A model generated the notes under the pieces. The model saw nothing but the letters and a program-made list of their open reading frames with translations, ran no database searches and had not been told where the DNA came from. From Candidatus Methanomethylicia archaeon (GTDB taxonomy: Archaea > Thermoproteota > Methanomethylicia > Nezhaarchaeales > B40-G2), in NCBI GenBank assembly GCA_029259155.1, contig JAPDJI010000004.1:18339-82338 (forward strand): a stretch of 64,000 nt of DNA, in the 5' to 3' direction. Position 1 is the stretch's first letter. The number at the start of each line of letters is the position of its first letter. This document shows, one piece after another, positions 3,567-53,970 of this stretch. The position numbers were made by a program, and so were the translations under genes.

Positions 3567-3639
3567 TAGCTTAAGCTACTATGCAGCGTTACGCTGAGGC
3601 AAGCTTAATTTCTTCGCCTCTATCAAGGCGGTGAGGTAG

Positions 3640-3725
3640 CGGGCCCGGCGGGATTTGAACCCGCGACCACTCGGTTAAGAGCCGAGCGCTTTCGGCTTTC
3701 CTCTACCGTGCTAAGCTACGGGCCC
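3640..3725 (-). tRNA. tRNA-Lys (anticodon CUU) with a roughly 12-nt non-canonical intron in the D-arm region
   Basis: Minus-strand read: GGGCCCG TA GCTT AGCACGGTA GAG[GAAAGCCGAAAG]C G CTCGG CTCTTAA CCGAG TGGTC GCGGG TTCAAAT CCCGC CGGGCCC G. Removing the bracketed insert restores the D-stem GCTT/GAGC. Anticodon loop is CU-CUU-AA. Confidence 0.7.
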
Positions 3726-13063: not shown

Positions 13064-13660
13064 TTAAAAAGACTGCAACTTTTTAAGAATGTGCCTTACG
13101 GCTTTCCTAACTTCTACATGGACTTCTTTAACGCTTTTACTGGCATCGACGAGGACATAGCCTTTTTCAAGAGCTCTCCTTCTAAGAATTTCCCTAACCT
13201 TTTCTAGGAAGCTTTCTTCTTCGAATACTTCCCTTCTTTCATGCTTTCTCGATAGGGCAAGCCTAGGTTCTAGGTCCAGAACCACCGTTAAAGCCGGTTT
13301 TGGGGCAAAGCTATTAATAGCTTCAATCCACTCCACCTCTGCTCCTTGGGCTCCTTGATATGCTATTGAGGATTCAAAATACCTGTCCGTAACCACTATG
13401 GCCCCTTCCCTTAGGGAAGGAGCTATGACTTTTGCTACGTGCTCGGCCCTATCGGCAGCAAAAAGGAGGGCTTCTATGTTTGCATCAACTCGTCCTTCCT
13501 TAAGTCTCCTTCTAATGAGCTTACCCACCCAGCCGCGGGTCGGCTCCTTGGTCAATATTACCTTAAACCCCTTTCTCTTGAGCCAGGATGACAATAACTT
13601 AGCCTGTGTAGTATTTCCTGCTCCATCGATGCCTTCAAGAGCTATGAGTATACCCTTCAC
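13064..13660 (-). CDS. tmk: thymidylate kinase
   Basis: 198 aa. Has the GIDGAGNTTQ P-loop, a DRY motif and a LID region. Confidence 0.85.
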   Translation of the reverse strand: MKGILIALEGIDGAGNTTQAKLLSSWLKRKGFKVILTKEPTRGWVGKLIRRRLKEGRVDANIEALLFAADRAEHVAKVIAPSLREGAIVVTDRYFESSIAYQGAQGAEVEWIEAINSFAPKPALTVVLDLEPRLALSRKHERREVFEEESFLEKVREILRRRALEKGYVLVDASKSVKEVHVEVRKAVRHILKKLQSF

Positions 13661-13676
13661 GTTTTCATCACCACAG

Positions 13677-14966
13677 CTAGACTGAGATCCTAGTCAACCC
13701 CTCTTGTCCAAAGATCTCCTTACAGGCTTTCTCCACTGCTTCCCTATGTTCATGAAGAGTGTACACCCTAATAACATCGGTGAACTTGGAGAGCGAGGAG
13801 AGCAGCTGCGAAACATCAGTTAACCTATGTATCTCACGCTCCCCCCTCTGTGTCCTTTTAAAAACTAGGATTTCTGCTCCATCTTTTGGGTGGACTGGGA
13901 CTGATAACACTGTAGGAACATCGACCACCACGTAATCCGGATCAACACAGGCCACTGCTCCAACTTCCTCCTCTAACTTTTTCCTTAGACTAGCTTTTCT
14001 GAGCAGACCGGCTAATGGGTCATCGCCTCTATGTACAACTGCCTCGTATGTACTCTTCAATAATTTACGTTGACTGAACATATATGCTAGCCTTCTAGCC
14101 ACCTCGGCTTTCCCGCCTCCTTGAAGTGAAAGAAGCGCGTGAAGCACTGAGTAGTCGTCCATTGAAAGAAACTCTTCTACATCACTAAACTTAGTTAGTC
14201 CTAGTTCTTCATCTGCATAGTTCATGGCCCTAGAGAGCATAACGTTAGCTGCTCTCACCGTCCTATGAAAGTATACAGCGTTGAACAATTCCAGCCTAGC
14301 TATGATGAAAGCTTCTAGGACATAGAAGGCACCTGGATAATCTACGGCTACTGAACCCTCTATCACGTCTATCGAATCTATCAGCCTATGGATATCAACT
14401 TCTCCAAATCCTACACCAGCAAAGTAAGAGTCTCTGACGATGTAATCCATGGTATCAGGTGATAACCTACCAGAAACTACTTGGTTTAAGAAGGCGGTGT
14501 CTTTACTTGTCAGTTTACCTACGCTTAAATCGGCTATCTCTTCTTTTGAGTAACCAGCTTCACTAAGTAAGTCTCCAACTTCACTTTCCTTTATGATCCA
14601 ATTAGTGAGGTCTTCATGGGTTAATCCTTTATGTTCGTTTAAGACCTCCTCGTATACATGGCTAAAAGGGCCATGGCCTAGATCGTGCAACAATCCAGCT
14701 ATCCTAAGTTTCTGAACTTCATCACTGCTTATGTAGCCTAGATAGTTTAGCCTTTCGGCTAGGAGCCCCGATAGGTGCATAACTCCGAGGGAGTGTAGAA
14801 ACCTAGTGTGGCAAGCTCCAGGATATGTAAGGTCAGAGCCTGCAAGCTGCTTAATTCGTCTAAGCCTTTGAACTGGGCTTGAATCTATTAACGCCTTTTC
14901 TACCTCTGTAAAGTATATGTAACCATGTACTGGATCCTTGATCTCTCCTACCCTCTTCAAACGCAT
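13677..14966 (-). CDS. HD-domain phosphohydrolase (dNTP triphosphohydrolase-like)
   Basis: 429 aa. Has the HTRF.HSLGV...HDLGHGPFSH HD motif. It lies next to tmk. Confidence 0.7.
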   Translation of the reverse strand: MRLKRVGEIKDPVHGYIYFTEVEKALIDSSPVQRLRRIKQLAGSDLTYPGACHTRFLHSLGVMHLSGLLAERLNYLGYISSDEVQKLRIAGLLHDLGHGPFSHVYEEVLNEHKGLTHEDLTNWIIKESEVGDLLSEAGYSKEEIADLSVGKLTSKDTAFLNQVVSGRLSPDTMDYIVRDSYFAGVGFGEVDIHRLIDSIDVIEGSVAVDYPGAFYVLEAFIIARLELFNAVYFHRTVRAANVMLSRAMNYADEELGLTKFSDVEEFLSMDDYSVLHALLSLQGGGKAEVARRLAYMFSQRKLLKSTYEAVVHRGDDPLAGLLRKASLRKKLEEEVGAVACVDPDYVVVDVPTVLSVPVHPKDGAEILVFKRTQRGEREIHRLTDVSQLLSSLSKFTDVIRVYTLHEHREAVEKACKEIFGQEGLTRISV

Positions 14967-15039
14967 GGTTCAACTCCTAACCTAGAGACGCTAAGCGATG
15001 CTATAAGTCGCTTCCCACTTAAATGAGTAGCTATGTTGC

Positions 15040-25277: not shown

Positions 25278-25427
25278 CCCCGGGTAGCTCAGAGGTAGAG
25301 CGCTCGGCTGTAGGTGTTGGCCGGCGGGTGAGGGCGTAAATGCGCGCGGTGACCCCTGCTCAGCCGAGCGGTAACCGAGAGCTGTGAAGGCCGGGAATGG
25401 TCGAGGGTTCAACTCCCTCCCCGGGGA
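25278..25427 (+). tRNA. tRNA-Tyr (anticodon GUA) with two introns: 60 nt at 37/38 and about 18 nt in the variable region
   Basis: Exons: CCCCGGG TA GCTC AGAGGTA GAGC G CTCGG CU-GUA-G ^[60 nt] A CCGAG A ^[GCTGTGAAGGCCGGGAAT] GGTC GAGGG TTCAACT CCCTC CCCGGGG A. The spliced product is a standard 72-nt cloverleaf. Confidence 0.7.
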
Positions 25428-40928: not shown

Positions 40929-41534
40929 TTGAAGTCTAGGCCGTTTTCCTCTCTATGGAGTGTTACAAACTTTTTAAGGAACCTGCTTATAAGGGAAAGG
41001 AAGGTGTGTTGGGTAGGGAGGGAGCCCTTGGATATACCAGTGTGCTACTTTTGCCTCAAAAGCGGATTCCTTTGTCAAAGCTGCAGTGACAAGTTGAAAA
41101 GAGGGGAAATTACTCAGCTTGACTTAGAGGTAGCTAGGAGCCTATTAGACCTAGAAGTTCGTTTCCCTCAATTAAAGGACTGTACTTTCTATAAAGCTGT
41201 GGAGGTTCCTGGACTAATTTTCATCATGGTTGGCTGTCGAAGAAGAATCCCTCGCGTCATATGGCGAAAGATCAGTAAGGCGCTAAGTGATGAGAAGAAA
41301 ATGGCGGTTAGGATCATAGAAAAGACGCCCAGCTTAAAGGCTTTTCTTACTCAGATATTATCTCCTGCCCGTATTTCTAGCATCAATACGATATGGCTCC
41401 CTGACGGTACCTGGGAGAGTAACGTTAAGATCTCGCCGGGAGATTTGAGAAAACTTCCTGCCGAGCCCAAGATACTAGAAGCGTTAATTAAGGACCTTAT
41501 TAACGAGAAAGTTACCATAACTCAGGCGGGCTGA
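40929..41534 (+). CDS. hypothetical Zn-ribbon protein (possible degenerate KH/NusA-like C-domain)
   Basis: Has CYFC...CQSC near the N-terminus. The start is uncertain. Confidence 0.3.
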   Translation: MKSRPFSSLWSVTNFLRNLLIRERKVCWVGREPLDIPVCYFCLKSGFLCQSCSDKLKRGEITQLDLEVARSLLDLEVRFPQLKDCTFYKAVEVPGLIFIMVGCRRRIPRVIWRKISKALSDEKKMAVRIIEKTPSLKAFLTQILSPARISSINTIWLPDGTWESNVKISPGDLRKLPAEPKILEALIKDLINEKVTITQAG

Positions 41535-41539
41535 CTTGT

Positions 41540-41929
41540 TTGTCGTCGCTTGAAAATGTTAAAGCGGTCATGATGGTAGATAAGGTGGAGCCTAGCGAGG
41601 TTGCAGGAGTATTTGTTGTATACTTTAAGGGACTTGAAGGCTCCCCGTTGGTAGAAATGAAGTTGGAATTACCTAGACAACTACTCATGTTTAAGAAAGG
41701 AGACAAAGTAACGTTGGAATTAGCTGAATCTCCTATTTCTTGGGGAGAAAAGTCTGATTTGCATTTAAGAGCTAGGATCTTCGGGTTAAAACCTATAGAG
41801 GGTGTTAGTATTCTCTATGCATCAGCTGGCGGCCTTCAGCTTAGGCTGTCGTTCAAAGAAAGTTCTCAGCGTTTCCAATCTTTAAGTAAGGTATATATTG
41901 CTTTCAAGATAATGAAGGAAACAGGGTAA
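41540..41929 (+). CDS. hypothetical protein (possible OB-fold; Rpo8-like not excluded)
   Basis: 129-aa ORF. No diagnostic motif. Confidence 0.3.
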   Translation: MSSLENVKAVMMVDKVEPSEVAGVFVVYFKGLEGSPLVEMKLELPRQLLMFKKGDKVTLELAESPISWGEKSDLHLRARIFGLKPIEGVSILYASAGGLQLRLSFKESSQRFQSLSKVYIAFKIMKETG

Positions 41930-42085
41930 CTCACTTTCGCTCTACTCTCTCACCTTCGCAAACACGTCCACTTTATTGACCCTCACCGGCGCCTATCAAG
42001 TATCTTCTTACCTTCCCAGAGGAAGCTACCTTACCATAAAGGTTAATTAAAACCCCTCTTCAGCGCCACCGAGGTTGAAGAAGCT

Positions 42086-43078
42086 ATGGACACTTGCAAT
42101 GAATGTGGAGGTCTCTTGATATGTAACGACCGGAAGGAATGGGTTTGTAGTAGTTGCGGCCTCGTTTACACCTATGAAGACTACACGCCACCCATATTTG
42201 TTCTTCAAAATGAGGATAGGGGAGGGGTTGAATCAAGGCAGTACGTCTCACCTCTACGCCGTTTAGGGCTTCAAGCACTTGGAAGCTATGTAGGATATGA
42301 AAACTCCTTAGGCTTACTGGATCCTTTAGGTCATCCTTTAAATCCAAGGCTGAGAGAGGCTTTCATTAAACTTAAAAGGCTCCATGATTTTCAGCCAAGA
42401 TCCGGTAGGAGCGGATCCATCGTTCAGGGCGAGAGGGCTCTCTTAAGGGCCTGTTCTCAGCTCAACGTTACAAACGCTGTAGTAAGAAGAGCCCTTCTCC
42501 TTTATAGGAAAGCCGTTAAAACTCAGGCTTGTTCTGGGCTCAGCCGCCCTTCACTGGCCGCTGCTTGTCTTTTCTTAGCCACGGGTACGTGGAAAGATAG
42601 TCGACCAGCTGGCGCTAAAAAGCTCCTTACCACCTTTAATGCTTTAAGGTATAGAGTGACCTTCAACAGTTTGTCAAAGGCTGTAGTGGCTGTGAGGAAA
42701 GCTTTAGGCATAAAAGTAGCTCCTCGAAGGCACCTAGACTATGTACCGTACATAGTAGAAGAATTACTATCTCGTGAAGAGATCCTAGGGAGGTTCGAAG
42801 AGGAGCGCGTTAAGCTCGGGGAATACAAGGTCAAGTTGATCCACTTATCACAACGGCTACTTCAGAAGCTTGATAGAAAACTTCTTGGAGGTAGAGCTCC
42901 ACATATACTTGCAGCAGCTGCAATATATGCGGCTTCTAGGCTGCTATCTCGTCAACTTAACTTAAAGAACTTCATTACTCAACGTGTTCTAAGTGAAGTG
43001 ATAGGGGTTGCGGAGTTTTCCATTAGGGACCATTACTCTAAACTCTTCAAACAGCTTTCCGGAAGGGGGTATGGTTGA
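42086..43078 (+). CDS. tfb: divergent transcription factor B (TFIIB) paralog
   Basis: Has an N-terminal Zn ribbon (CNECGG...CSSCG) and two cyclin repeats (ALLLYRKAV...SRPSLAAACLFLA; HILAAAAIYAAS...TQRVLSEVIGVAEFSIRDHY). The B-reader block (GPEWRxF) is not recognisable. An upstream TTAATTAAA element and a GAGGTTG RBS are present. Confidence 0.7.
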   Translation: MDTCNECGGLLICNDRKEWVCSSCGLVYTYEDYTPPIFVLQNEDRGGVESRQYVSPLRRLGLQALGSYVGYENSLGLLDPLGHPLNPRLREAFIKLKRLHDFQPRSGRSGSIVQGERALLRACSQLNVTNAVVRRALLLYRKAVKTQACSGLSRPSLAAACLFLATGTWKDSRPAGAKKLLTTFNALRYRVTFNSLSKAVVAVRKALGIKVAPRRHLDYVPYIVEELLSREEILGRFEEERVKLGEYKVKLIHLSQRLLQKLDRKLLGGRAPHILAAAAIYAASRLLSRQLNLKNFITQRVLSEVIGVAEFSIRDHYSKLFKQLSGRGYG

Positions 43079-43482
43079 AGTATTCTGCGAAGGAAGTAGC
43101 TGAAGCTATGGCCTCTGAAGGCCTTGAACCCGCCCTCATAAAAAGGGTCTTAATTAACTTAGGTTTCTCTAATGACGAAGCTGTCAGGGCGGTGGCTAGA
43201 GCATGCATAATTATGGGTAGAAAAATTGAACAAGACCGTTCGCAGGATTTTCCTCAATTAGCTGAACTGGTCAAGAAATATGATACTACGTTGTCCTCTT
43301 TAACTAGGGACGTAGAGGAGATTAAGGCGTCATTGACCCTACCGACGGTAAAAGACGTTGAAACTATTGAGCGTAGAGTATCGGTGCTCGAGAGTAAGGT
43401 CAACGCTTTGATCGATTTGCTCTCTGATTACGCCCCTATGATCATCGAAAAAGTCAGGGCTCGGGGGCAGTATGATACGTGA
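43075..43482 (+). CDS. hypothetical helical protein in the pilus-like operon
   Basis: 135 aa. The start overlaps the tfb stop. Confidence 0.4.
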   Translation: MKYSAKEVAEAMASEGLEPALIKRVLINLGFSNDEAVRAVARACIIMGRKIEQDRSQDFPQLAELVKKYDTTLSSLTRDVEEIKASLTLPTVKDVETIERRVSVLESKVNALIDLLSDYAPMIIEKVRARGQYDT

Positions 43483-45632
43483 AGTGTAACGGGAGATGTA
43501 CCGCGTTATTCAAGAGACATGGACATAAACTGGTCATTAAGTGTCCATTAAACTGCTTAGGCGCTGATCTAGCTGATAATCCACTTTGTCGAGCCAAGAC
43601 CATTTATTGGCTCAGTAGGGCGAAGGTAAATGAACTTGTAATTAAGACGTCTTTCCTCACTAAGCTCTATGAGGGAAGAACTGTTAAGCTCCTATCTGAC
43701 TATGCTCGACGGCTCGTTAAGGCAAGAGCTGAAGTATTAGATACGAAGCTCTTAACAAGTTGTCAAGGCGCTCTCGCCTGTTTTGAAGCTAAGAAAGGTT
43801 TTCTCGTGGATCTGTTCTCTCTCCATCCATCTCCAGGCCTTCTCTATACTGATCCCTTAACCGCCTTGCTAAGGGTTGATGAAGAGCTCAAAAAATTATC
43901 GATGTCTCCAGCTCAAGGAAAAGGATGTAAAGAATGTGTCGATGAATATACTGCAGCTCTCAAAAAATTAAGAGGTAGACTTAGATCCTCGGACTTGATC
44001 AAGGAAGGACTTAAGTTAGTTCCCCGTTCTCCTTCCACTACTTTGGTTTATACCGCTTTATTGAAGCCTTCTAGGACTTTAATTTCTCCCTACTCTCGAG
44101 AGAAGGCCCCTTCTTCTATGGCTGTGCGTGGAATTCTCCTTGATGAATACTTGGTACCGCCCTTTAAAATAAAGATCTTTCACCTGAATACACTTGAATC
44201 TCTTTATGTGGTTTCATTAACTCTTAATCCTTGGGAACGCTTAGTGGTCAACGAAGTAGTTAAGAGACTTAACATGTCTTCTACCTATATTCACGGCCTT
44301 GGAAAAAATAGGCTCTCTTTTTTAATTGATGTTAGGAGGCGCGATGTGGAGAACGTGCTAGAGGCACTTTGGTTTGAAGGTTTCGAGCAGACCAAGAATT
44401 CCAGAGCCGTGACTGAAGCTTCGGTGTTTAAGTCTCTTGGTCTTCTCAAACTCGCTCCCTTTCTTCTCGATGAAATGGTTGAAGAGTTCTTCTTGGACAA
44501 GCCTTCCTCCCATATTTACCTGATACATTCAAAGTGGGGCAGGTGTAGGTCCAACGTAATACTTAACGAACGTGATGTAAACAGGATAATTACGCACCTC
44601 AAGATCGATAGTGGCCTTCCACTAGATTATGAGAATCCTTCATTAAAATGCGAACTCATAACTGAGGCTTTCCATGTGAGAGCTTCAGTTGACATTCCTC
44701 CCCTCGCTGTTGATGGGCCTACGCTGGACTTTAGGAAATTGAGAAAGAAGGTTTGGACCCTACCTGACCTCGTAAATAATGGAACTTTAACTCCTGAAGC
44801 TGCTGCTTACCTACTTTTCTGTCTTTTTAGGCGTAGAAACATCACGGTTGTCGGGGAACCAAACACTGGTAAGACGACTCTCATTAACGCCCTAGACCTC
44901 TGTTCCCCTCCTCACTGGAGGAAAATCTACGTCGAAGACGTAACTGAAAGTATTCCGCAGTTAAAATTAGGTAAGCACCAGGTAAGGCTTAAGGTATCTC
45001 CTTTCGAAAGTCGGAGGCAGACTTTCCTTAAGAGCCTTGAAGTACTACGTCTTCTCCACAGATCGCCTGACTTCGTGATACTCTCTGAAATCCAAACTCC
45101 TGAACACTCTAAAGCCCTATTCCAAGCTTTAACTTCTGGCTTACGTGGTCTTCAGACGTGTCACGCCTCAACGCTTGAAGGGCTTTTAAGAAGATGGATT
45201 CTCCACCATGGTATTTCCCCCATCAACCTCTTGGACCTTGACCTCCTCGTTCAGATGAAAACTGTCCTCATCGATGGGAGAGAGGTTAGAAGGATGGTGA
45301 GGCTTAGTGAAGTAAAGGTTTCTGAAGAAGTTTCAGAGGTTTCTGAGGCACTGGCCCCAGTTAAACTGGTAGATGTGTTTACCTGGATCCCTAACTTAGG
45401 TTTAGTCAGGCAGGTTGATCTGTATGAAACACCCACTTTATCCAAGATAAAGGAGCTAGAGTTTCTTTCGAGGAAAAGGTTCGAGGAGGAAATAAGAGCC
45501 TATCAGGAACTTCTACTGAGACTTTCTTCTAGCTCAATTGACCCAGCAACTTGTTCAACCAAGCTTAGCCAACTGTACTTCAGGTATGTAGCCGGACTCG
45601 AGGAGGCTTCAACCATTGTTGAAGACATTTAG
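43479..45632 (+). CDS. type II/IV secretion-system ATPase (VirB11/TadA/FlaI family) with a roughly 400-aa Cys-containing N-terminal extension
   Basis: Has Walker A VGEPNTGKTTLINAL, an Asp box KIYVEDVTE, Walker B PDFVILSEIQTPE, and a His box LQTCHASTLEGLLRR. Confidence 0.7.
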   Translation: MKCNGRCTALFKRHGHKLVIKCPLNCLGADLADNPLCRAKTIYWLSRAKVNELVIKTSFLTKLYEGRTVKLLSDYARRLVKARAEVLDTKLLTSCQGALACFEAKKGFLVDLFSLHPSPGLLYTDPLTALLRVDEELKKLSMSPAQGKGCKECVDEYTAALKKLRGRLRSSDLIKEGLKLVPRSPSTTLVYTALLKPSRTLISPYSREKAPSSMAVRGILLDEYLVPPFKIKIFHLNTLESLYVVSLTLNPWERLVVNEVVKRLNMSSTYIHGLGKNRLSFLIDVRRRDVENVLEALWFEGFEQTKNSRAVTEASVFKSLGLLKLAPFLLDEMVEEFFLDKPSSHIYLIHSKWGRCRSNVILNERDVNRIITHLKIDSGLPLDYENPSLKCELITEAFHVRASVDIPPLAVDGPTLDFRKLRKKVWTLPDLVNNGTLTPEAAAYLLFCLFRRRNITVVGEPNTGKTTLINALDLCSPPHWRKIYVEDVTESIPQLKLGKHQVRLKVSPFESRRQTFLKSLEVLRLLHRSPDFVILSEIQTPEHSKALFQALTSGLRGLQTCHASTLEGLLRRWILHHGISPINLLDLDLLVQMKTVLIDGREVRRMVRLSEVKVSEEVSEVSEALAPVKLVDVFTWIPNLGLVRQVDLYETPTLSKIKELEFLSRKRFEEEIRAYQELLLRLSSSSIDPATCSTKLSQLYFRYVAGLEEASTIVEDI

Positions 45633-46398
45633 TAGTAAAGTTTATGCAAAGTTCACAAGCTCGTGGCTCCACTTATTGAAAAGTACGGTTCCAGCCCTAA
45701 GTGAATGGGGGATTAGGGAAGAAGAGGTGTATAGAGCTTTAAGCCCACTTATCAAGTTCTCGCTTTTATTCACCCTTTTACCTTTAATGGTACTTTGGCC
45801 TTTTGACGCTATCCTGGGGCTAACGTTATCGCTTGCTCTATTCTACCCCTCCATCAAGCTTCCTTCCCTATACGTGGTCAATAAGATTTTAAGGCCTACG
45901 CTCATTGCTGAGAGGTATTCTCCCTTCATAATTAATGAACTCATAATAACTTTCACGGCTTCAGGATCCCTTCATAGGGCAGTGACCTTTGTAGCTGAGG
46001 GAGATTATCCTCATATATCTCAATGTTTCAAGGAAATACTAAGGAGAACCGAGGAAGGAATAGACCTAGAACGTTTGCTTCTCCAGTACGCTAAGAACGC
46101 TCCACCTACCATAGGAGAGTTTCTATTACACTTTATTAAGGCTCCTGTGGAACATAGGTTTTCTGCCTCGGAACTTCAACATAAAGTATGGGAGGTGTAC
46201 CTCGAAGATATCAAGAGGCTTAGGCTGAACATTCTTGTTCTCTTTTCTATGGGCTTCCTGTTGCCTGTCCCTATCATTGCAGCTTTGTTAATAAGAGGAA
46301 CAAGCTACCTAGTACCTCTGATAGTACCTCTGCATACATTACTGCTTTCTCTCACCGTGAAAACCTCACTTAGAGGGAGGGTCATTCCATTAGGATGA
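45616..46398 (+). CDS. TadB/TadC (T2SSF)-like membrane platform protein, half-size
   Basis: 260 aa. The topology is TM-TM, then a roughly 110-aa cytosolic helical domain, then TM. Confidence 0.5.
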   Translation: MLKTFSSKVYAKFTSSWLHLLKSTVPALSEWGIREEEVYRALSPLIKFSLLFTLLPLMVLWPFDAILGLTLSLALFYPSIKLPSLYVVNKILRPTLIAERYSPFIINELIITFTASGSLHRAVTFVAEGDYPHISQCFKEILRRTEEGIDLERLLLQYAKNAPPTIGEFLLHFIKAPVEHRFSASELQHKVWEVYLEDIKRLRLNILVLFSMGFLLPVPIIAALLIRGTSYLVPLIVPLHTLLLSLTVKTSLRGRVIPLG

Positions 46399-47189
46399 GA
46401 CCTGTCGATAAAGTAGCCCTTTTCTTTTCTTTTTTAGCGTCTGTATGCGTCTTCATGGCGATATATGGATATGTTCATGGTGCAGCTGTAGCCATCGTCG
46501 TGGCTACCACTCTCCAACCCTTCCTCTATCTTTTCCTCTGTCTTCTACACCGTACGGAGAGGATTATGTCAAGGGCCGAAGACCTATCTGAGTTAGAGTT
46601 TTTCATGTCAATGGTTGCTGCGAAGCTTCGATTAGGCTTATCGATTGAGGCTGCTTTCCACGAAGCATGCCTTGAATATCGAGGTAGACTCAAAGAACTA
46701 TTGGAAAATGTGGACAGAAAGTTAATGGAGGGCTTGCCATTAAGCCTCGCTCTTTCAGGTTTATCAAGGTCTCTTAGGTCTCGTGAGGCCCGAAGGTTGT
46801 TGATGTTAGCACCTAGGCTTACGGAGTACAGCTCGAAGAAGGCTGGGGTTAACCTCTATCGTTTAGTAACTATGTTAAGGAGAAACAGGAAACTAAAGGA
46901 TAGACTATGGAAGGCTTTAAGAGCTGAAGACCTTAAGGTAAAGCTGCTTTCAATAATCTACGCTGCCGTGCTTGCTTCACTTGCCCATTTAGCTAGGTTA
47001 CTAGGAGAACTGGTAGGTTTTTCTCGACCACTAGATATGCTTTTTACTTTTCTACCGCTTGCCTTTATGTCCATTGTAACCCCCTTCTACGCTACCTTAA
47101 TAGTTCAAGGCGAAAAGCCTCTCCTTAGGTCCATTACGTCTCTCTCGGTTTTTCTCGCTTTCTACGTTCTGCTATATGCGATTGTGTAG
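46395..47189 (+). CDS. second TadB/TadC (T2SSF)-like membrane platform protein
   Basis: 264 aa with the same TM / cytosolic / TM architecture. The start overlaps the upstream stop. Confidence 0.5.
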   Translation: MRPVDKVALFFSFLASVCVFMAIYGYVHGAAVAIVVATTLQPFLYLFLCLLHRTERIMSRAEDLSELEFFMSMVAAKLRLGLSIEAAFHEACLEYRGRLKELLENVDRKLMEGLPLSLALSGLSRSLRSREARRLLMLAPRLTEYSSKKAGVNLYRLVTMLRRNRKLKDRLWKALRAEDLKVKLLSIIYAAVLASLAHLARLLGELVGFSRPLDMLFTFLPLAFMSIVTPFYATLIVQGEKPLLRSITSLSVFLAFYVLLYAIV

Positions 47190-47237
47190 GCGCAGGGGTT
47201 ATATATTCTTCATAGTGAAGGAGGGCGGTGTGCGAGG

Positions 47238-47483
47238 ATGGTATTTAGATTAGTTAAGAGGATTCTGAAGAATCGTACTGCTTCTCCTCTCGTCGAAGAA
47301 GGCATATTGCTGAGCTTAACCGTGGTATCGCTGGCTGTGGTCTTGTCCTTGATAGTAAGTCTTTTTGGAGGTATTGATAATGTCATGGGAGGGGCTAATG
47401 AAGCCATGAACAGTTTCTTCTCATCTGCTCTAAGAAGCCTTGACGACCTAGTTCGACAACTTAACAGTCTCTTTACTGGCTAG
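47238..47483 (+). CDS. Flp/type IV pilin-like protein (class III signal peptide)
   Basis: MVFRLVKRILKNRTA|SPLVEEGILLSLTVVSLAVVLSLIVSLF has a basic leader and then a hydrophobic helix. The E-E-G-I-L-L block resembles the Flp 'EYGLI' motif. Confidence 0.5.
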   Translation: MVFRLVKRILKNRTASPLVEEGILLSLTVVSLAVVLSLIVSLFGGIDNVMGGANEAMNSFFSSALRSLDDLVRQLNSLFTG

Positions 47484-47519: not shown

Positions 47520-48848
47520 ATGTTCAACCTAAACGAACTCATATTAATGAACGTCCTACCTCCTGTCCTCTTAAGACTGAGAGATCCTAATACTAAATCT
47601 CCCTATCATATCTTTGTTTTCGGAATGACGGGAAGCGGTAAGACCAATAGCGTGAAACACATAATATCATCCAAGAGAATCAAGCGCTCCCTATTGATTT
47701 TAGATTGGGCCGGTGAATATGGTGACATCAACCTATTATCTCTAACTCCTAGCGATCTATCTATGGAGAGCTTAGAGCCTACTCAGATCGTTGATGCGTT
47801 TAGTGCAGCTTACCAGTTAACTAGACCTCAAGAAGCATTTATGCTTAGATGCCTTGGCAGTTCATGTAGAATAAGCGAGTTAATAGATCGTATTAGCCAT
47901 GCTCCGTTAAGGAGCGCTAGCGAAGCTGAACTGAGGGAAGCGTTACTTCGGAGACTTGAACCTCTTCAAAGCTTAATGTTATTTGAAGGGGGTCAAGATC
48001 TTGCTGCTCTACTTGAAGGAAAGGTAAGATTAGACCTGAGCTCTCTTCCTTTTGAGGCTAGGAGGCTAGCGGTAAATATCATACTTAGGTTGATCTACAA
48101 CCGAGTGACGTCTTGTGGTAGTCATGGACTTATATTGGTACTTGAAGAGGCGGAAAACGTAATTCCCCCAAGAAGGTTCGAAGACCCTCCTCAAGGAGGA
48201 GAAGTAATAATAAACGAGTTGAGGAAGTGGGGTGTTTCGGTAATAGCTATTGCTCAGTTACCAAGTCAAGTAAGCATGTTTTCTTTTAGAAACTGCGAAT
48301 ACATAATATTGCATCGAGTGCAGTTAACTGCATTGGAGGCAGACTGGCTTGGCTTAACTCCTAACGATGTTATCAAGCTAGCCAAGCTACCCACTGGGCA
48401 AGCTCTCCTAATTCATAGGGGGTTAAAGAGGTGGATCAAGATTGCGCCTTTTAAGGCTTCATCTAGCCGAATTGAGGGGAACCGCCTGCTTACCTATCAT
48501 AAATTTTCTTCTTCTAAAACTGATGAAGTAGGTCAGGTTTCTGTCAGAGCGCCTAAGTCTGACGATGACAGGTTATCAATCATTGAGGGAAAACTTGAGC
48601 TCTTACACGAGAAACTAGACGAGGTAACAGGCCACTTCAAGCTCTTTGGCGAGCTTATTCACCTCCTCCCATACCTCGAAGCTTCAAAGAAGGGCGACTA
48701 CATAGTTATTGGCTCTAAAAGATACCTCAGCCCTGAGGAAGAACAGGTAGTAATTCGCCTCTTAAGTACTGCTGGAATCGTAGATAGCGCCTTGATTAAT
48801 GGGAGGAGGTACTGGGTGGTCAAGCCTAAGCATAGCGGGGCTTGTTAA
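47520..48848 (+). CDS. DUF87/HerA/VirB4-like P-loop ATPase
   Basis: Has Walker A FGMTGSGKTNS, Walker B LILVLEEAENV, and the arginine-finger-type block LRKWGVSVIAIAQLPSQV. Confidence 0.6.
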   Translation: MFNLNELILMNVLPPVLLRLRDPNTKSPYHIFVFGMTGSGKTNSVKHIISSKRIKRSLLILDWAGEYGDINLLSLTPSDLSMESLEPTQIVDAFSAAYQLTRPQEAFMLRCLGSSCRISELIDRISHAPLRSASEAELREALLRRLEPLQSLMLFEGGQDLAALLEGKVRLDLSSLPFEARRLAVNIILRLIYNRVTSCGSHGLILVLEEAENVIPPRRFEDPPQGGEVIINELRKWGVSVIAIAQLPSQVSMFSFRNCEYIILHRVQLTALEADWLGLTPNDVIKLAKLPTGQALLIHRGLKRWIKIAPFKASSSRIEGNRLLTYHKFSSSKTDEVGQVSVRAPKSDDDRLSIIEGKLELLHEKLDEVTGHFKLFGELIHLLPYLEASKKGDYIVIGSKRYLSPEEEQVVIRLLSTAGIVDSALINGRRYWVVKPKHSGAC

Positions 48849-50653
48849 ATGTGTACTCGGAGTTCTTCCCCTATGATAACTTGCGTCCTGGCCAGAAAGA
48901 GCTTATTGATGCTGTACGGATGGCTATCATTAAGGGAGAGAACTTAGCGATCAATGCTCCTAGTGGTTTTGGTAAAACCATATCAACATTAGCCGCCGCC
49001 CTATCAGTGAGGTCTAGGATTTTATGGTTTACACGTACTCATAGGGAGGCCGAGAGGGTAGTTGAAGAAGCTCGCCTCTTAGCCTCTAAAAAAGGGGTTT
49101 CTCTAACTGCATTAGCACTTCAGTCAAGGGCTAGCTTATGCCCTATGAGTCAAGGTTTAACCCCTGAGGAAGCTTCAGTACTTTGTAAAGAACGCAGAAG
49201 CAGCTGTTTGTTTTACCGTAATTTCCTATCTTTCTTTGAGCCTCCGCCCTCCTTACTTTTAACTGCTAGCGAACTGTTCTCTTACTATATTCGTTCCTCC
49301 ATTTGCCCTTACTATGCTCAATTAAGCCTATGTGATGCGGTCGACATAGTGGCAGCGAGCTTCCCCTTCCTAGTCAATCCTTTTGCTAGAAGAATGTTAA
49401 GTTTCAGTCCTGTGGTCGTCGTGGTGATAGATGAGGTTCACGGCATGCCCGATGCTATAGCAGTACATCAGAGCTCTGAGGTAACTGCTAGGTCTCTTCG
49501 CCAGTCATTAGAAGAAGCCAGGCAATTAAATATAGGTAAGGCTTTAACCTCCTTCATAGAGTCTACCATCTCGCTCCTAGAGGACATAAAGGTTGAGGAA
49601 CTACGTAAACCATTAGAAGTGATCGAGCAACTTCAAGGAATTACAAACTATTCCCTCCACGTCATTACTGAATCCCTCTTATATTGGGGCGATGAATATA
49701 GAAGGGCTTTAGCAAGGAAAGGTGAAAGGCCTAGAAGTTCTCTCTATAATTTAGGCTATTTTCTCTCTAGGCTTTTATCTCACAGTGAAGGACAGGTCGT
49801 ATCTTTGGGGCAGGGACAAGCTAAGCTTCTCTGCCTAGACACTAAGCTATCTATGCCTACTGTCAGGTCAACTATCCTTATGAGCGGTACCATGGACCCC
49901 ATCCTCCTAGAGGAACTTGGGGTAAAAGCGTCCTTCATCGATCTTTCAAAGTACGCTTCCTATCGATGCAAAGTCTTCTTACTGGAAGATGTAACAAGCA
50001 GATTCAAGGAAAGGATGAAGAAGATGTATGAGGCTTATGCCAAGTACATAGAGCTTTTAGCATCCCTCCCCGTCAATATGGCCGTCTTTTTTCCAAGTTA
50101 TGAAGTACTAGCAAGAATACGTGAGGAGTTGAAGAGGATCAAGAAACCTATCTTCTCCGAGGAGGAGAAAATGCAAAGCTTGGAGCATGAAGCTATGTTG
50201 AAGGAGTTTAAATCACATGGAGGTAAAGGAGGAGCCATATACTTAGGGGTCTGTGGTGGTAGGGCTAGTGAAGGAGTAGATTTTCCAGGAAAGGAGCTTG
50301 ACGTAGTTTTCATAGCTGGTATACCCTTTGAGGAGCCCTCTCAGTTAGTTGAAGCCAAGCTGAGTTATTATGCTGAAAAACATGGAGAGAAAGGTTATGT
50401 GCTTGCGTATATTGTACCTGCTACGCGTAAGGTTGCCCAAGCGGTTGGAAGAGCTTTTAGAGGGCCTGGAGATACAGGGATCGTTGTCCTAGGAGATAAG
50501 CGTTTCAAGAATTTAATGAAATTTCTACCTCAATGGTTGGGAAGGTTTGAGACCATTAAATGGAGTACAAGATCCTCCATGCTTATAAAGGCGGCTTCTA
50601 TGTTAGGTATAGAGGTATCAGGGAGGGAGACTAACGGAGTGGAAGGAGGATAA
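48842..50653 (+). CDS. xpd: XPD/Rad3-family 5'-3' DNA helicase with Fe-S domain
   Basis: Has FPYDNLRPGQKELIDAV, Walker A APSGFGKT, a four-Cys Fe-S cluster insert (CPMSQG...C...C...CPYY), a DEVH box and C-terminal helicase motifs. Confidence 0.75.
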   Translation: MLNVYSEFFPYDNLRPGQKELIDAVRMAIIKGENLAINAPSGFGKTISTLAAALSVRSRILWFTRTHREAERVVEEARLLASKKGVSLTALALQSRASLCPMSQGLTPEEASVLCKERRSSCLFYRNFLSFFEPPPSLLLTASELFSYYIRSSICPYYAQLSLCDAVDIVAASFPFLVNPFARRMLSFSPVVVVVIDEVHGMPDAIAVHQSSEVTARSLRQSLEEARQLNIGKALTSFIESTISLLEDIKVEELRKPLEVIEQLQGITNYSLHVITESLLYWGDEYRRALARKGERPRSSLYNLGYFLSRLLSHSEGQVVSLGQGQAKLLCLDTKLSMPTVRSTILMSGTMDPILLEELGVKASFIDLSKYASYRCKVFLLEDVTSRFKERMKKMYEAYAKYIELLASLPVNMAVFFPSYEVLARIREELKRIKKPIFSEEEKMQSLEHEAMLKEFKSHGGKGGAIYLGVCGGRASEGVDFPGKELDVVFIAGIPFEEPSQLVEAKLSYYAEKHGEKGYVLAYIVPATRKVAQAVGRAFRGPGDTGIVVLGDKRFKNLMKFLPQWLGRFETIKWSTRSSMLIKAASMLGIEVSGRETNGVEGG

Positions 50654-50663
50654 GCCTCGAGCT

Positions 50664-51224
50664 ATTGTTATTACCGGAACACCTGGGACAGGTAAAACCT
50701 CATTGGGTAAGGGGCTGGCTGAGGCCTTCTCTTTGATGCACGTGGATGTTCCTCTGCTAGTTGAAAAAGAAGGATTGTATAGTGATGTTGATCGCGATAG
50801 GGGATCAAAAGTTGTATCGCTCAGTAAGCTAAGACGCAGGCTACACGGCTTGCTCATGGAGACTGGCGGGCTTGTAGCATCTTCTCACGTTCCTGACGTC
50901 CTACCTAGTAGGGATGTAGACTACGTCCTCGTATTGAGAATTGACCCGAGGGCTCTCCTACACCGTTTACTAAGTAGAGGTTGGCCTGAGGGTAAAGTGA
51001 AGGAGAATGTAGCTTCTGAAGCGTTGGGTATCTGTCTAGCTCAGGCCCTTGACTACTATGGTGAGGTCAAGGTCTACGAGCTCGACGTGACAAATAAGTC
51101 GTTAGAAGACGTATTGGAGGAGGCCACTAAGATGATTAAAGGCGAGGTTAAGAAGACTACTATTGACTGGTTGGCTAAAGCTGAGGAAGATGAAGATCTT
51201 GCTAGCTTATTGGCTAGTTGTTAA
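50664..51224 (+). CDS. Fap7/adenylate kinase 6-like nucleoside kinase; the start codon is uncertain
   Basis: The frame is open from 50613. It encodes (A)[16 protein letters not shown]... (P-loop), [24 protein letters not shown] and ENVASEA. There is no ATG, GTG or TTG upstream of the P-loop; ATT at 50664 is the best candidate. The ORF-track TTG at 50703 would delete the P-loop. Confidence 0.55.
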
Positions 51225-53055: not shown

Positions 53056-53970
53056 TTGATGATGATATGTACCTCCTCTGACCTGGTGATGGATGTGAAG
53101 GTTAAGCTAAGGTTTATGGCAGTATTAAAACCTCTGGCCAAAAACCCTGTCTACGAACTTGAGATCGAAGACGGGGCTACTCTAAGCGTCCTTTTAAAGA
53201 AGCTTATCCAAGAGGAGCGTAAAGAGCTTCTAGCAAGGCTTCTGGATCCCTCAGAGGCCTCTCTACAATCTGACATATTGGTGCTCATAAATGGAATTGA
53301 AATAAGTGCTCTCGAAGGATTAAACACTAAGTTAAGGGATGGTGATGAAGTCGTGTTCTTGCCTACGGTACATGGAGGAAGCTTGGAGTTTGTTGCTCCT
53401 TGGTGGGATGAATTTTACTTTAAGATTCTTAGGCTGGCTGATTTGATCGAGGCTTCAGGCTTTAAACCTGACATCATAGTGGGAGTTGCTAGAGGAGGTT
53501 GGATAGTAGCTAGATTACTCTCCGATTTTCTTGACAACCCTAACGTCGTCAACGTTAAGGTGGAATTTTACCGCGGGGTAGCCGAGACCATGGAGGAACC
53601 TAAAATTTCTCAGCCTCTATCAGCCTCAGTTAAAGGATGCAAGGTGCTTATAGCGGATGATGTAGCTGATACGGGTAAGTCGCTTGAAGTTGTAAAGAGA
53701 CATGTGGAGGAGAAGGGGGCCTCAGAGGTCAAGATAGCTACGGTCTACTATAAGCCGTGGTCTATCATTAAGCCAGACTTTTATGTTGATGAAACAACCT
53801 GTTGGGTGATTTTTCCACACGAAGTGAAGGAAACCATGACTAAGCTCCTAACTAGGTGGTTAAGCGAAGGGATAAGTGTTGAAGAGGCTAAAGAAAAACT
53901 GCTTAAAAGCGGAATCAAACTCGAGGTGCTTGAAGCCCTTCTCCCCAAAGTATTAAGTAAGCTTAGCTGA
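53056..53970 (+). CDS. MoaD/ThiS-like ubiquitin-fold domain fused to a type I purine phosphoribosyltransferase
   Basis: The N-terminal roughly 95 aa have a beta-grasp pattern ending ...DGDEVVFLPTVHGG and continue in-frame into a PRTase with the PRPP motif VLIADDVADTGKS. The probable start is the Met at 53089. Confidence 0.55.
   Translation: MMMICTSSDLVMDVKVKLRFMAVLKPLAKNPVYELEIEDGATLSVLLKKLIQEERKELLARLLDPSEASLQSDILVLINGIEISALEGLNTKLRDGDEVVFLPTVHGGSLEFVAPWWDEFYFKILRLADLIEASGFKPDIIVGVARGGWIVARLLSDFLDNPNVVNVKVEFYRGVAETMEEPKISQPLSASVKGCKVLIADDVADTGKSLEVVKRHVEEKGASEVKIATVYYKPWSIIKPDFYVDETTCWVIFPHEVKETMTKLLTRWLSEGISVEEAKEKLLKSGIKLEVLEALLPKVLSKLS

Follow-up and report, generated by a model that had tools for sequence, protein, structure and literature searches.

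A full-length TFB paralog with a degenerate B-reader encoded beside a pilus-like ATPase module in Thermoproteota and Asgard archaea

The closest described relatives of the system considered here are found among archaeal type IV pilus (T4P) loci, within which Makarova, Koonin and Albers (2016; PMC4858521) distinguished a Thermoproteales "subclade 4D" consisting of a FlaI-like ATPase with an added Cys-containing N-terminal domain and a short TadC-derived protein with 4-5 transmembrane (TM) segments, and no pilins. In Pyrobaculum and Thermoproteus the 4D operon adds a Zn-finger TFIIB homolog, arCOG05559, with RPB8 in or beside the operon, and the system was proposed to have changed in function, becoming transcription-related. 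The same work places TFIIB homologs of arCOG01981, which combine a Zn finger with two cyclin domains, in many archaeal T4P loci as predicted regulators. A later preprint (bioRxiv 10.64898/2026.04.22.720090) likewise describes 4D as without a pilin, gives the TFIIB-like factor as specific to Pyrobaculum and Thermoproteus, restates the transcription-related idea, and reports type-IV-filament systems to be widespread except in Asgard archaea. In our literature search arCOG05559 was named in no paper other than that of 2016, and no paper connecting Asgard, TFIIB, RPB8 and an ATPase operon was found. Here we describe a TFB/TFIIB-like protein of 330 aa encoded at 42086..43078 (+) in a 64,000-nucleotide stretch of contig JAPDJI010000004.1 from a Candidatus Methanomethylicia archaeon (hereafter the window), together with the pilus-like ATPase module that follows it and the relatives of both.

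What alternative sigma factors are to bacteria, alternative TFBs are to archaea, and they provided the raw material of the eukaryotic TFIIB-like families. In Sulfolobus, TFB3 controls the Ups pilus, Ced and HerA operons and acts in trans beside the canonical TFB; it is built of a ribbon and a coiled coil with no cyclin core, is UV-induced, and is encoded outside the pilus operon. Pyrococcus furiosus TFB2, a duplicate specific to Thermococcales and not known to be linked to any pilus-like locus, reportedly has ribbon and core without a conserved B-finger/B-reader and still supports transcription. Sulfolobus TFB2 drives division genes and cell-cycle transcription (Kuo et al., bioRxiv 10.64898/2026.09.06.749720), and the TFB2 of TACK archaea is a divergent, fast-evolving full-length paralog, encoded in a gar1-tfb2 operon and derived from an early TACK duplication (bioRxiv 10.64898/2026.09.06.749720).

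The window protein is a full-length TFB/TFIIB homolog with ribbon, linker, cyclin core, helix-turn-helix (HTH) and a degenerate reader. Its open reading frame (ORF) begins with ATG, with GAGGT 11-15 nt 5' of the start codon on inspection of the sequence. Two Pfam TFIIB repeat stretches are recognized (E 1.4e-14), and the NCBIfam TFB model NF001658 covers residues 3-324 at 71.8 bits, below its curated cut-off of 384. With hhalign, a profile of 21 relatives could be aligned collinearly to one built from seven canonical TFBs (probability 100, E 3.9e-41), and a sequence search of the PDB returned the cores of P. woesei TFB and human TFIIB at E about 5e-6. An AlphaFold2 model built from 17 family sequences has a pLDDT (predicted local distance difference test) of 75, with the ribbon and both cyclin domains confident and values below 50 at residues 35-70. 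The PDB structures closest to it in fold are TFIIB chains of Pol II pre-initiation complexes, human TFIIB in its ternary complex with TBP and TATA, and P. woesei TFB in complexes with TBP and DNA; Foldseek superimposes it on the P. woesei core 1ais_B (TFB-TBP-DNA complex) with a TM score of 0.79 and a root-mean-square deviation of 3.7, and on 1vol_A with a TM score of 0.74. The ORF listing, Pfam, hhalign and Foldseek thus bear out the original prediction, made from the sequence alone, of a 330-aa frame with a Zn ribbon and both cyclin repeats. An identical protein is deposited as DRN06_03290, a hypothetical protein of a "Thermoprotei archaeon" metagenome-assembled genome (MAG). A pseudogene is ruled out by the intact frame and by invariant residues conserved across phyla, and two short antisense ORFs inside this conserved frame (42084..42347 and 42523..42711) are assumed to be shadow ORFs and not genes.

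The least conserved part of the family lies between the ribbon and the linker. The Zn ribbon (residues 4-27, CNEC...CSSCGLV; 42095..42166, +), assigned from Cys conservation and the hhalign match to the canonical ribbon, has all four cysteines, with C21 and C24 being invariant among the 21 relatives and C4 and C7 nearly so; the AlphaFold2 model places its strands at residues 10-13 and 19-21. With the Pfam model Zn_Ribbon_TF the window protein itself falls short of E 0.01, but matches to this model are recorded for relatives. The reader-equivalent segment that follows (residues 28-63; 42167..42274, +) has the canonical length, with 36 residues between ribbon and linker in both the family and the canonical TFBs according to hhalign, and is without the canonical reader motifs GPEWRxF and SRxGxP in the alignment to canonical TFBs. 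Across the 150 best family representatives EWRxF is absent from ranks 1-131 and occurs earliest at rank 132, so that about 130 clusters at 50% identity are without the reader motif; among eight canonical TFBs retrieved, four have EWRxF and the remaining four a variant of it. The mean top-residue frequency of the reader segment, 0.29, is the lowest in the family, where other regions have 0.45-0.70, whereas the same segment in canonical TFBs has 0.54, near the 0.57-0.71 of their other regions. These values point to relaxed or lineage-specific constraint on the family's reader segment. The linker, by contrast, is kept: the motif at about residues 63-71 (residues 64-71, LGSYVGYE, at 42275..42298, +) reads ALGSYVGY in the window and GLGSYIGY in the family, and hhalign matches it column by column to the canonical G-L-S-T-x-I-G (GLSTxIG of the HDKGLSTxIG block). 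With a conservation of 0.70 it is among the best conserved stretches of the family, G66 being invariant and S67 present in at least 90% of the 21 relatives. The earlier claim that the protein has no B-reader/B-linker block therefore stands for the reader, whose motifs are gone in both hhalign and the rank scan, and falls for the linker. An alignment with a normal reader was named there as able to refute it; the alignment to seven canonical TFBs showed no normal reader motifs in the 36-residue segment.

The core is complete. The first cyclin repeat (residues ~108-207; 42407..42706, +) is supported by the Pfam TFIIB stretch at 112-167, the model helices and the Foldseek matches to 1ais_B and 1vol_A, and the second (residues ~216-326; 42731..43063, +) by a PDB alignment of residues 258-324 to residues 133-193 of P. 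woesei TFB. A gap in the hhalign alignment marks a family-specific insertion of ~18 residues at the start of the second repeat. The HTH recognition helix within this repeat, VAEFSIRDHY (residues 308-317), corresponds to canonical TEVTIRNRY and is family-specific in sequence (AEFSIRDH vs TEVTIRNR); the family motif is AEY/F-S-I-R-D-H in place of canonical TEVT-I/V-R-N-R, and R314 and H316 are invariant among the 21 relatives. Although these relatives are only 28-45% identical, C21, C24, G66, G269, P272, Y281, R314 and H316 are invariant among them, and the conservation of ribbon, linker and HTH residues at this distance suggests purifying selection on the parts that contact RNA polymerase (RNAP) and DNA.

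Judged by its sequence, the TFB-like ORF belongs to a distinct, widespread clade of TFB/TFIIB paralogs. A word-indexed search gave just 4, then 25, relatives; an exhaustive protein search gave 575 representatives of 50%-identity clusters at E<=1e-3 and 157 at E<=1e-10, mostly as full-length matches. The family profile scores its members at 320-426 bits and canonical TFBs at no more than 122 bits. Named members are annotated as "hypothetical protein" or as generic TFIIB-family proteins, and their sources are Helarchaeota, Odin-, Baldr-, Jord- and Hodarchaeales, Verstraetearchaeota/Methanomethylicota and Thermoprotei MAGs. When one genome was scanned for each species, 274 encoding stretches were obtained; nearly all of the best 80 belong to Asgard archaea (Borr, Sif, Atabey, Jord, Frey, Baldr, Odin, Hermod, Heimdall, Thor and Loki-type), together with Bathyarchaeia. 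The scan patterns, AEYS[IV]R[DE]H and RGGR[NA]P, were taken from a 10-sequence core alignment; they bias the catch to Asgard archaea and Bathyarchaeia and missed the window's own lineage, which was recovered separately through contigs encoding related proteins; these contigs added loci L082-L087. Among these, L082 is the contig of a 41%-identical ortholog and L085 a Verstraetearchaeota-like contig at ~30% identity. Single MAGs among the Borr-type and other Asgard archaea carry two copies of the TFB-like gene (L003 with L005, L004 with L013, L019 with L041). In the Borr-type pairs each copy has TadC-like genes of its own, and the ATPase is present at three of the four loci, the fourth ending before the position of the ATPase.

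The TFB-like gene is genomically locked to one module, comprising an ATPase, a TadC-like platform, a conserved mini-prepilin of 70-80 aa, often a DUF87 ATPase and often rpo8, across Thermoproteota and most Asgard classes. In the window the gene heads a same-strand array, as the original prediction stated, with overlapping start and stop codons at 43075/43078, 43479/43482, 45616/45632 and 46395/46398. The first overlap joins it to a small alpha-helical/coiled-coil protein of 135 aa (43075..43482, +) that matches no family above threshold in family-model searches; L082 has an ortholog of 113 aa at the equivalent place, and in L085 a 60-aa coiled-coil ORF before the ATPase has a C-terminal coiled-coil stretch visibly similar to that of the window protein. 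Next is an ATPase of the FlaI/TadA/VirB11 superfamily (717 aa; 43479..45632, +; Pfam T2SSE E 4e-12), whose NCBIfam scores of 84 bits for FlaI, 75 for TadA and 50 for VirB11 are all far under their cut-offs. It carries an N-terminal extension of ~320 aa with conserved Cys clusters, whose positions line up with the cysteines of the Jord, Frey, Atabey and Bathy homologs. Two TadC/T2SSF-like platform proteins follow, one of 260 aa (45616..46398, +; Pfam T2SSF E 3e-4, below cut-off; homologs in 30 loci) and one of 264 aa (46395..47189, +; Pfam T2SSF E 1.6e-3; homologs in 17-21 loci). The 81-aa protein encoded at 47238..47483 (+) resembles a Flp/Epd-like mini-prepilin, with a basic N-terminus, the sequence KNRTA/SPLVEE and one hydrophobic helix; it has no Pfam match, and its N-terminus is class III signal-peptide-like (KNRTA/SPLVEEGILLSLTVV, with Glu at +5). 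A DUF87 (HerA/VirB4/CedD-like) P-loop ATPase of 442 aa (47520..48848, +; Pfam DUF87 E 2e-12) completes this part of the array, its best NCBIfam match being CedD, the DNA-import ATPase of the Ced system, at 77 bits against a cut-off of 600.

Linkage to this module recurs in at least eight class-level lineages. In 53 of 81 Asgard and Bathyarchaeia loci, homologs of the window ATPase (220-480 bits) are encoded no more than 8 kb from the TFB-like gene, and the same holds for 35 of the 50 loci for which each side extends at least 4 kb. TadC-like genes were seen in 40 loci, whereas 32 have the mini-pilin and 17 rpo8. The mini-pilin motif [KR][GA][SG]PL[VI]EE[GS][LI]L occurs 38 times in 87 loci and the window, each time on the same strand as the TFB-like gene, and its range extends from Thermoproteota to Thor and Heimdall. 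The mini-pilin of Heimdall- and Jord/Frey-type loci lies directly 5' of the TFB-like gene. Module-linked members within Thermoproteota come from Thermoprotei MAGs, the Verstraetearchaeota-like contig and Bathyarchaeia. Relative to the ATPase operon, the TFB-like gene is oriented co-directionally in Thor, Heimdall, Baldr and Atabey, divergently in Jord/Frey and convergently in Borr, and the persistence of linkage through such rearrangement indicates functional coupling and not frozen synteny. The physical tie of the TFB-like gene to a pilus-like array, present in the window, is thus conserved across phyla, which makes a dedicated role for the array a reasonable inference.

Individual loci show how the module varies. 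L082 keeps the whole array, from Lrp, Alba, KH and Rpo8 through DUF87, XPD and AAA_18. The order in L085 is Rpo8, the TFB-like gene, three pilin-like ORFs, the coiled-coil ORF, the ATPase, two membrane proteins, the mini-pilin and a DUF87/TraG-like ATPase (13412-14996) that is 35% identical to the window DUF87 ATPase (E 2e-32). Thor loci have Ig-like surface proteins and a more distant transmembrane DUF87 ATPase of 1166 aa (L057, 13469-16966), which lies 2.6 kb further downstream, past an oppositely oriented adhesin-like gene. The DUF87 ATPase is a hint that the module may translocate DNA. Several loci have, between the TFB-like gene and the ATPase, 3-5 opposite-strand ORFs of ~100-300 aa with pilin-like N-terminal hydrophobic helices (L085 7959-9747, -; L086 7875-9455, -; L087 6578-8634, -; also Hermod/Odin-type loci), and these are possible minor pilins. 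Genes for an Lsm protein (Lsm_C) and an archaeosine tRNA-guanine transglycosylase lie just 5' of the TFB-like gene in L082 (1185-3256), L085 (4268-6352) and ~18 Asgard/Bathyarchaeia loci; the occurrence of this pair in both Thermoproteota relatives and Asgard/Bathyarchaeia loci suggests a very old synteny.

Directly upstream of the TFB-like gene the window encodes an Rpo8/RPB8 homolog (rpo8/rpoG; 41540..41929, +; Pfam RNA_pol_RpbG E 1.2e-5, 25.7 bits, cut-off 27). The gene is also found 5' of the TFB-like gene in L082, L085 and 16 Thor-type loci. A PDB search with the window Rpo8 sequence gave no match, and the sole PDB match of a Thor Rpo8 profile was a weak one to S. pombe Rpb8 (E 0.14). On its upstream side the TFB-like gene has Alba, a NusA-like KH protein and Rpo8 as immediate neighbors, and on its downstream side the ATPase module. 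The KH protein, which matches the archaeal NusA-like model (201 aa; 40929..41534, +; NF005013, 169 bits, cut-off 175), sits between Alba and rpo8, so that the TFB-like gene ends a small transcription/chromatin gene cluster. At its other end the array continues with an XPD/Rad3-family helicase (48842..50653, +; Pfam DEAD_2 and Helicase_C_2; TIGR00604 rad3, 221 bits), which is at the equivalent place in L082-L084, and an AAA_18 putative kinase (50703..51224, +); both are neighbors conserved only in the window's own lineage. The array had been described as a pilus/repair array, and for its repair part the picture is mixed: three lineages retain the DUF87 ATPase behind the mini-pilin, while the XPD and AAA_18 genes belong to the array in the window lineage only.

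Putative promoter elements were read directly from the sequences. A predicted BRE/TATA-like element (BRE, B recognition element), AAAGGTTAATTAAAA (42038..42052, +), lies about 35-50 nt 5' of the TFB-like ATG; AAAG[G/T]TTAT elements are at the matching place in L082 and L085, and GAAA-N3-5-RGTTARG is found 5' of the TFB-like gene in Thor and Hermod/Odin-type loci. A G-run with a TATA-like element, GGGGTTATATATT (47195..47207, +), precedes the mini-pilin gene in the window and was noted anecdotally. Four or five G before a TATA-like box are also seen in distant lineages, before the mini-pilin in L082 (12993-13003) and L014 (6884-6894) and ~75 nt 5' of the DUF87-TM gene in Thor, the forms being GGGGTTATATATT, GGGGGTTAAAT and GGGG[AT]GTTCATAT. 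This combination is a candidate non-canonical BRE. The patterns GAAA-N3-6-RGTTARK and GGGG-N0-2-KTYAHAT were drawn by eye from the sequences and then scanned, and their enrichment before TFB-like, DUF87 and pilin genes is a lead only. Between the promoter-like element and the start codon, the 5' untranslated region (5'UTR) of the TFB-like gene contains a conserved 9-bp hairpin in L020 (7941-7990), L023 (7940-7991), L029, L030, L031, L036, L040, L055 and L068, with a Shine-Dalgarno-like AAGTGAT in its 3' arm and compensatory changes in 4 of the 9 pairs; it may confer translational control on the TFB-like mRNA. The window's own 5'UTR hairpin was no better than shuffles (z -0.9).

We consider it about an even chance (probability about 0.5), from anatomy and context, that the TFB-like protein is the module's own dedicated, sigma-like alternative initiation factor. 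The cyclin core and the family-specific HTH would bind TBP and promoter DNA, and the altered HTH may shift the preference for the BRE. Ribbon and linker would recruit RNAP, while a degenerate reader would be expected to alter both the reading of start sites and the opening of promoters. In favor of this reading count the conserved ribbon, linker and HTH, the discreteness of the clade, the linkage to the module, the 4D association reported in 2016 and the BRE/TATA-like element of the TFB-like gene itself, with Sulfolobus TFB3 and TFB2 and P. furiosus TFB2 as precedents. The original prediction had proposed a dedicated, possibly stress-specific, initiation factor. Of this, the tie to a pilus-like array holds across phyla, and a dedicated role is plausible; stress specificity, drawn by analogy from Sulfolobus TFB3, a protein of different architecture without a cyclin core, found no support. 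Several observations weigh against a dedicated initiation factor. Loki-type loci have no ATPase within 8 kb of the TFB-like gene, 5-7 kb from which, at the edge of the fetched DNA, are a 507-aa TadC-like gene and, by eye, a prepilin peptidase-like gene. The RGRS loop of the first repeat of canonical TFBs is not kept in the family, and loss of the reader could impair initiation. The promoter-motif evidence is anecdotal and circular in derivation. Neither the 64 kb window, in a tblastn search with a Pyrococcus TFB query, nor the 10 kb beyond the window start contains a second TFB. Finally, in the window lineage 4-nt overlaps couple the TFB-like gene translationally to those for the coiled-coil protein and the ATPase, and such an arrangement suits a stoichiometric partner no less than a regulator.

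This last point leads to the main rival explanation, in which the TFB-like protein is a structural or adaptor subunit of a repurposed type-IV-filament-like machine, binding the ATPase, the coiled-coil protein or the platform and linking the machine to RNAP or DNA. We regard it as rather unlikely, and the remaining alternatives as less likely than this one. A changed, transcription-related function for 4D was proposed by Makarova et al. (2016; PMC4858521) and repeated in bioRxiv 10.64898/2026.04.22.720090, and the anatomy of the operon agrees: overlaps join the TFB-like, coiled-coil and ATPase genes in the window and the first two of these in L082, where the ATPase is next with no gap; rpo8 is adjacent in Thermoproteota and Thor; and the unusual Cys-rich N-terminal extension of the ATPase could offer a docking site. 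However, the mini-prepilin is conserved, and some loci have extra pilin-like ORFs and the peptidase-like gene identified by eye, which together make the machine look like a working filament system and no remnant. The HTH, ribbon and linker are moreover still under selection, and the divergent or convergent orientation of the TFB-like gene and the ATPase operon in several Asgard lineages means that the two are not co-translated there. Loss of the reader motif with retention of the docking parts would suit an inhibitory decoy, which would bind TBP/DNA and RNAP, be non-productive without a functional reader, and so repress or gate transcription; TFS4, a TFS paralog that lost functional residues and turned into an RNAP inhibitor, is a precedent. 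Such a decoy seems improbable given that P. furiosus TFB2 is reported to support transcription despite poor reader conservation, that Sulfolobus TFB2 drives division genes, and that tight linkage to one module suggests a specific and not a global role.

Two further explanations concern the identity of the protein among TFBs. Orthology to the Thermoproteota TFB2 lineage of the gar1-tfb2 operon would be in keeping with a divergent full-length paralog that arose early in TACK and with the origin of the window from a Thermoprotei MAG. It is very improbable, as the TFB-like gene has no Gar1-domain gene beside it, either in the window or in L082-L087, and as the family is mostly Asgard (in a pattern-biased scan) while TFB2 is described as a TACK duplication. 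The idea that this is the organism's only general-purpose TFB, in a neighborhood that is coincidental, draws on the absence of another TFB homolog from the window and the adjoining 10 kb. We hold this to be the least credible of the alternatives: the protein reaches 72 bits where the TFB model has its cut-off at 384, the reader motif of canonical TFBs is absent, some MAGs carry two copies of the TFB-like gene (L003/L005, L004/L013), PMC4858521 lists the T4P-linked arCOG05559 apart from the general arCOG01981, and the neighborhood recurs in many lineages. A TFB3-like identity is ruled out by the full cyclin core found by Pfam and Foldseek.

A bolder reading is that the clade is an ancient third TFB lineage, older than the split between Thermoproteota and Asgard archaea, and co-inherited with rpo8 and a hitherto unrecognized, near-universal Asgard/TACK Flp-type filament machine, possibly a DNA-translocating one of VirB4/CedD-like kind. 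The TFB-like protein would serve this machine either as a cognate initiation factor with its own BRE code, such as the G-run with TATA that precedes pilin and DUF87 genes, or as a tether for RNAP. We offer this tentatively, as somewhat doubtful; if true, it would overturn both the view of a pilin-less remnant confined to Pyrobaculum and Thermoproteus and the view that Asgard archaea largely lack type-IV-filament systems. A reader-less, otherwise intact TFB lineage beside one membrane machine and rpo8 would be a rare archaeal general factor with a fixed, identifiable target, and would give a handle on two questions, the constraint that the B-reader places on initiation and the reprogramming of promoter specificity through the TFB HTH. 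The loci also correct the description of "4D" by adding a conserved mini-prepilin, often a VirB4/HerA-like ATPase, and common occurrence in Asgard genomes, and they bear on the surface or DNA-transfer structures of the closest relatives of eukaryotes.

Three other features of the window lie away from this locus. A 304-aa fusion of ThiS/Urm1-like ubiquitin-fold and phosphoribosyltransferase domains (53056-53970, +) is followed by a homolog of CGI-121 (KEOPS). A 150-nt Rfam tRNA match (25278-25427, +) was not called by ARAGORN and is probably a long-intron tRNA, and an atypical tRNA call with a 4-base anticodon (agcg) lies at 3639-3725 (-).

The family can be compared with several described TFB paralogs. 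Like Sulfolobus TFB3, which controls pilus, DNA-import and HerA operons, the window protein is a TFB paralog associated with pilus-type genes; unlike TFB3, it keeps the whole cyclin core. It shares with the TACK TFB2 lineage, whose regulon is specialized, the character of a divergent full-length Thermoproteota paralog, but the synteny of TFB2 is with gar1, whereas the window family is found with rpo8 and the ATPase and is abundant in Asgard archaea. With P. furiosus TFB2, as reported, it shares the character of a full-length paralog in which the reader sequence is not conserved. In bacteria, dedicated sigma factors such as FliA/sigma-28 are encoded in the clusters of their target apparatus, and a promoter-recognition subunit encoded beside the filament machine it serves would be a similar arrangement; this is an analogy only and implies no homology of mechanism. 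The arCOG01981 proteins resemble the window protein in having a Zn finger together with a pair of cyclin domains and in being encoded within T4P loci, but they are a general TFB group from which PMC4858521 separates no reader-less clade and links none to one ATPase family.

The likeness to the 4D operon is close. The window has its TFIIB homolog in one predicted operon with an ATPase and membrane proteins (overlaps from 43075 to 46398), an arrangement shared by L082-L087 and Asgard loci; an extra, Cys-bearing N-terminal domain is present in the window ATPase; and rpo8 adjoins the operon, as it does in the L082, L085 and Thor loci. There are also differences. Whereas 4D is described as pilin-less, the window encodes an 81-aa mini-prepilin whose motif is conserved 38 times, and ORFs of this small size may have been missed in the earlier census. 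arCOG05559 is described with a single cyclin domain, and the window protein, compared with it by published description only, has two repeats. arCOG05559 is restricted to Pyrobaculum and Thermoproteus, while the window family spans Asgard archaea, Bathyarchaeia, a Verstraetearchaeota-like contig and other Thermoprotei MAGs, and its loci often include a DUF87 ATPase. The association of a TFIIB homolog with the ATPase and RPB8 is therefore known since Makarova et al. (2016); new here are the breadth of the family, across Asgard archaea and Thermoproteota, the conserved mini-prepilin and DUF87 ATPase in loci called pilin-less, and the recurrent linkage to rpo8.

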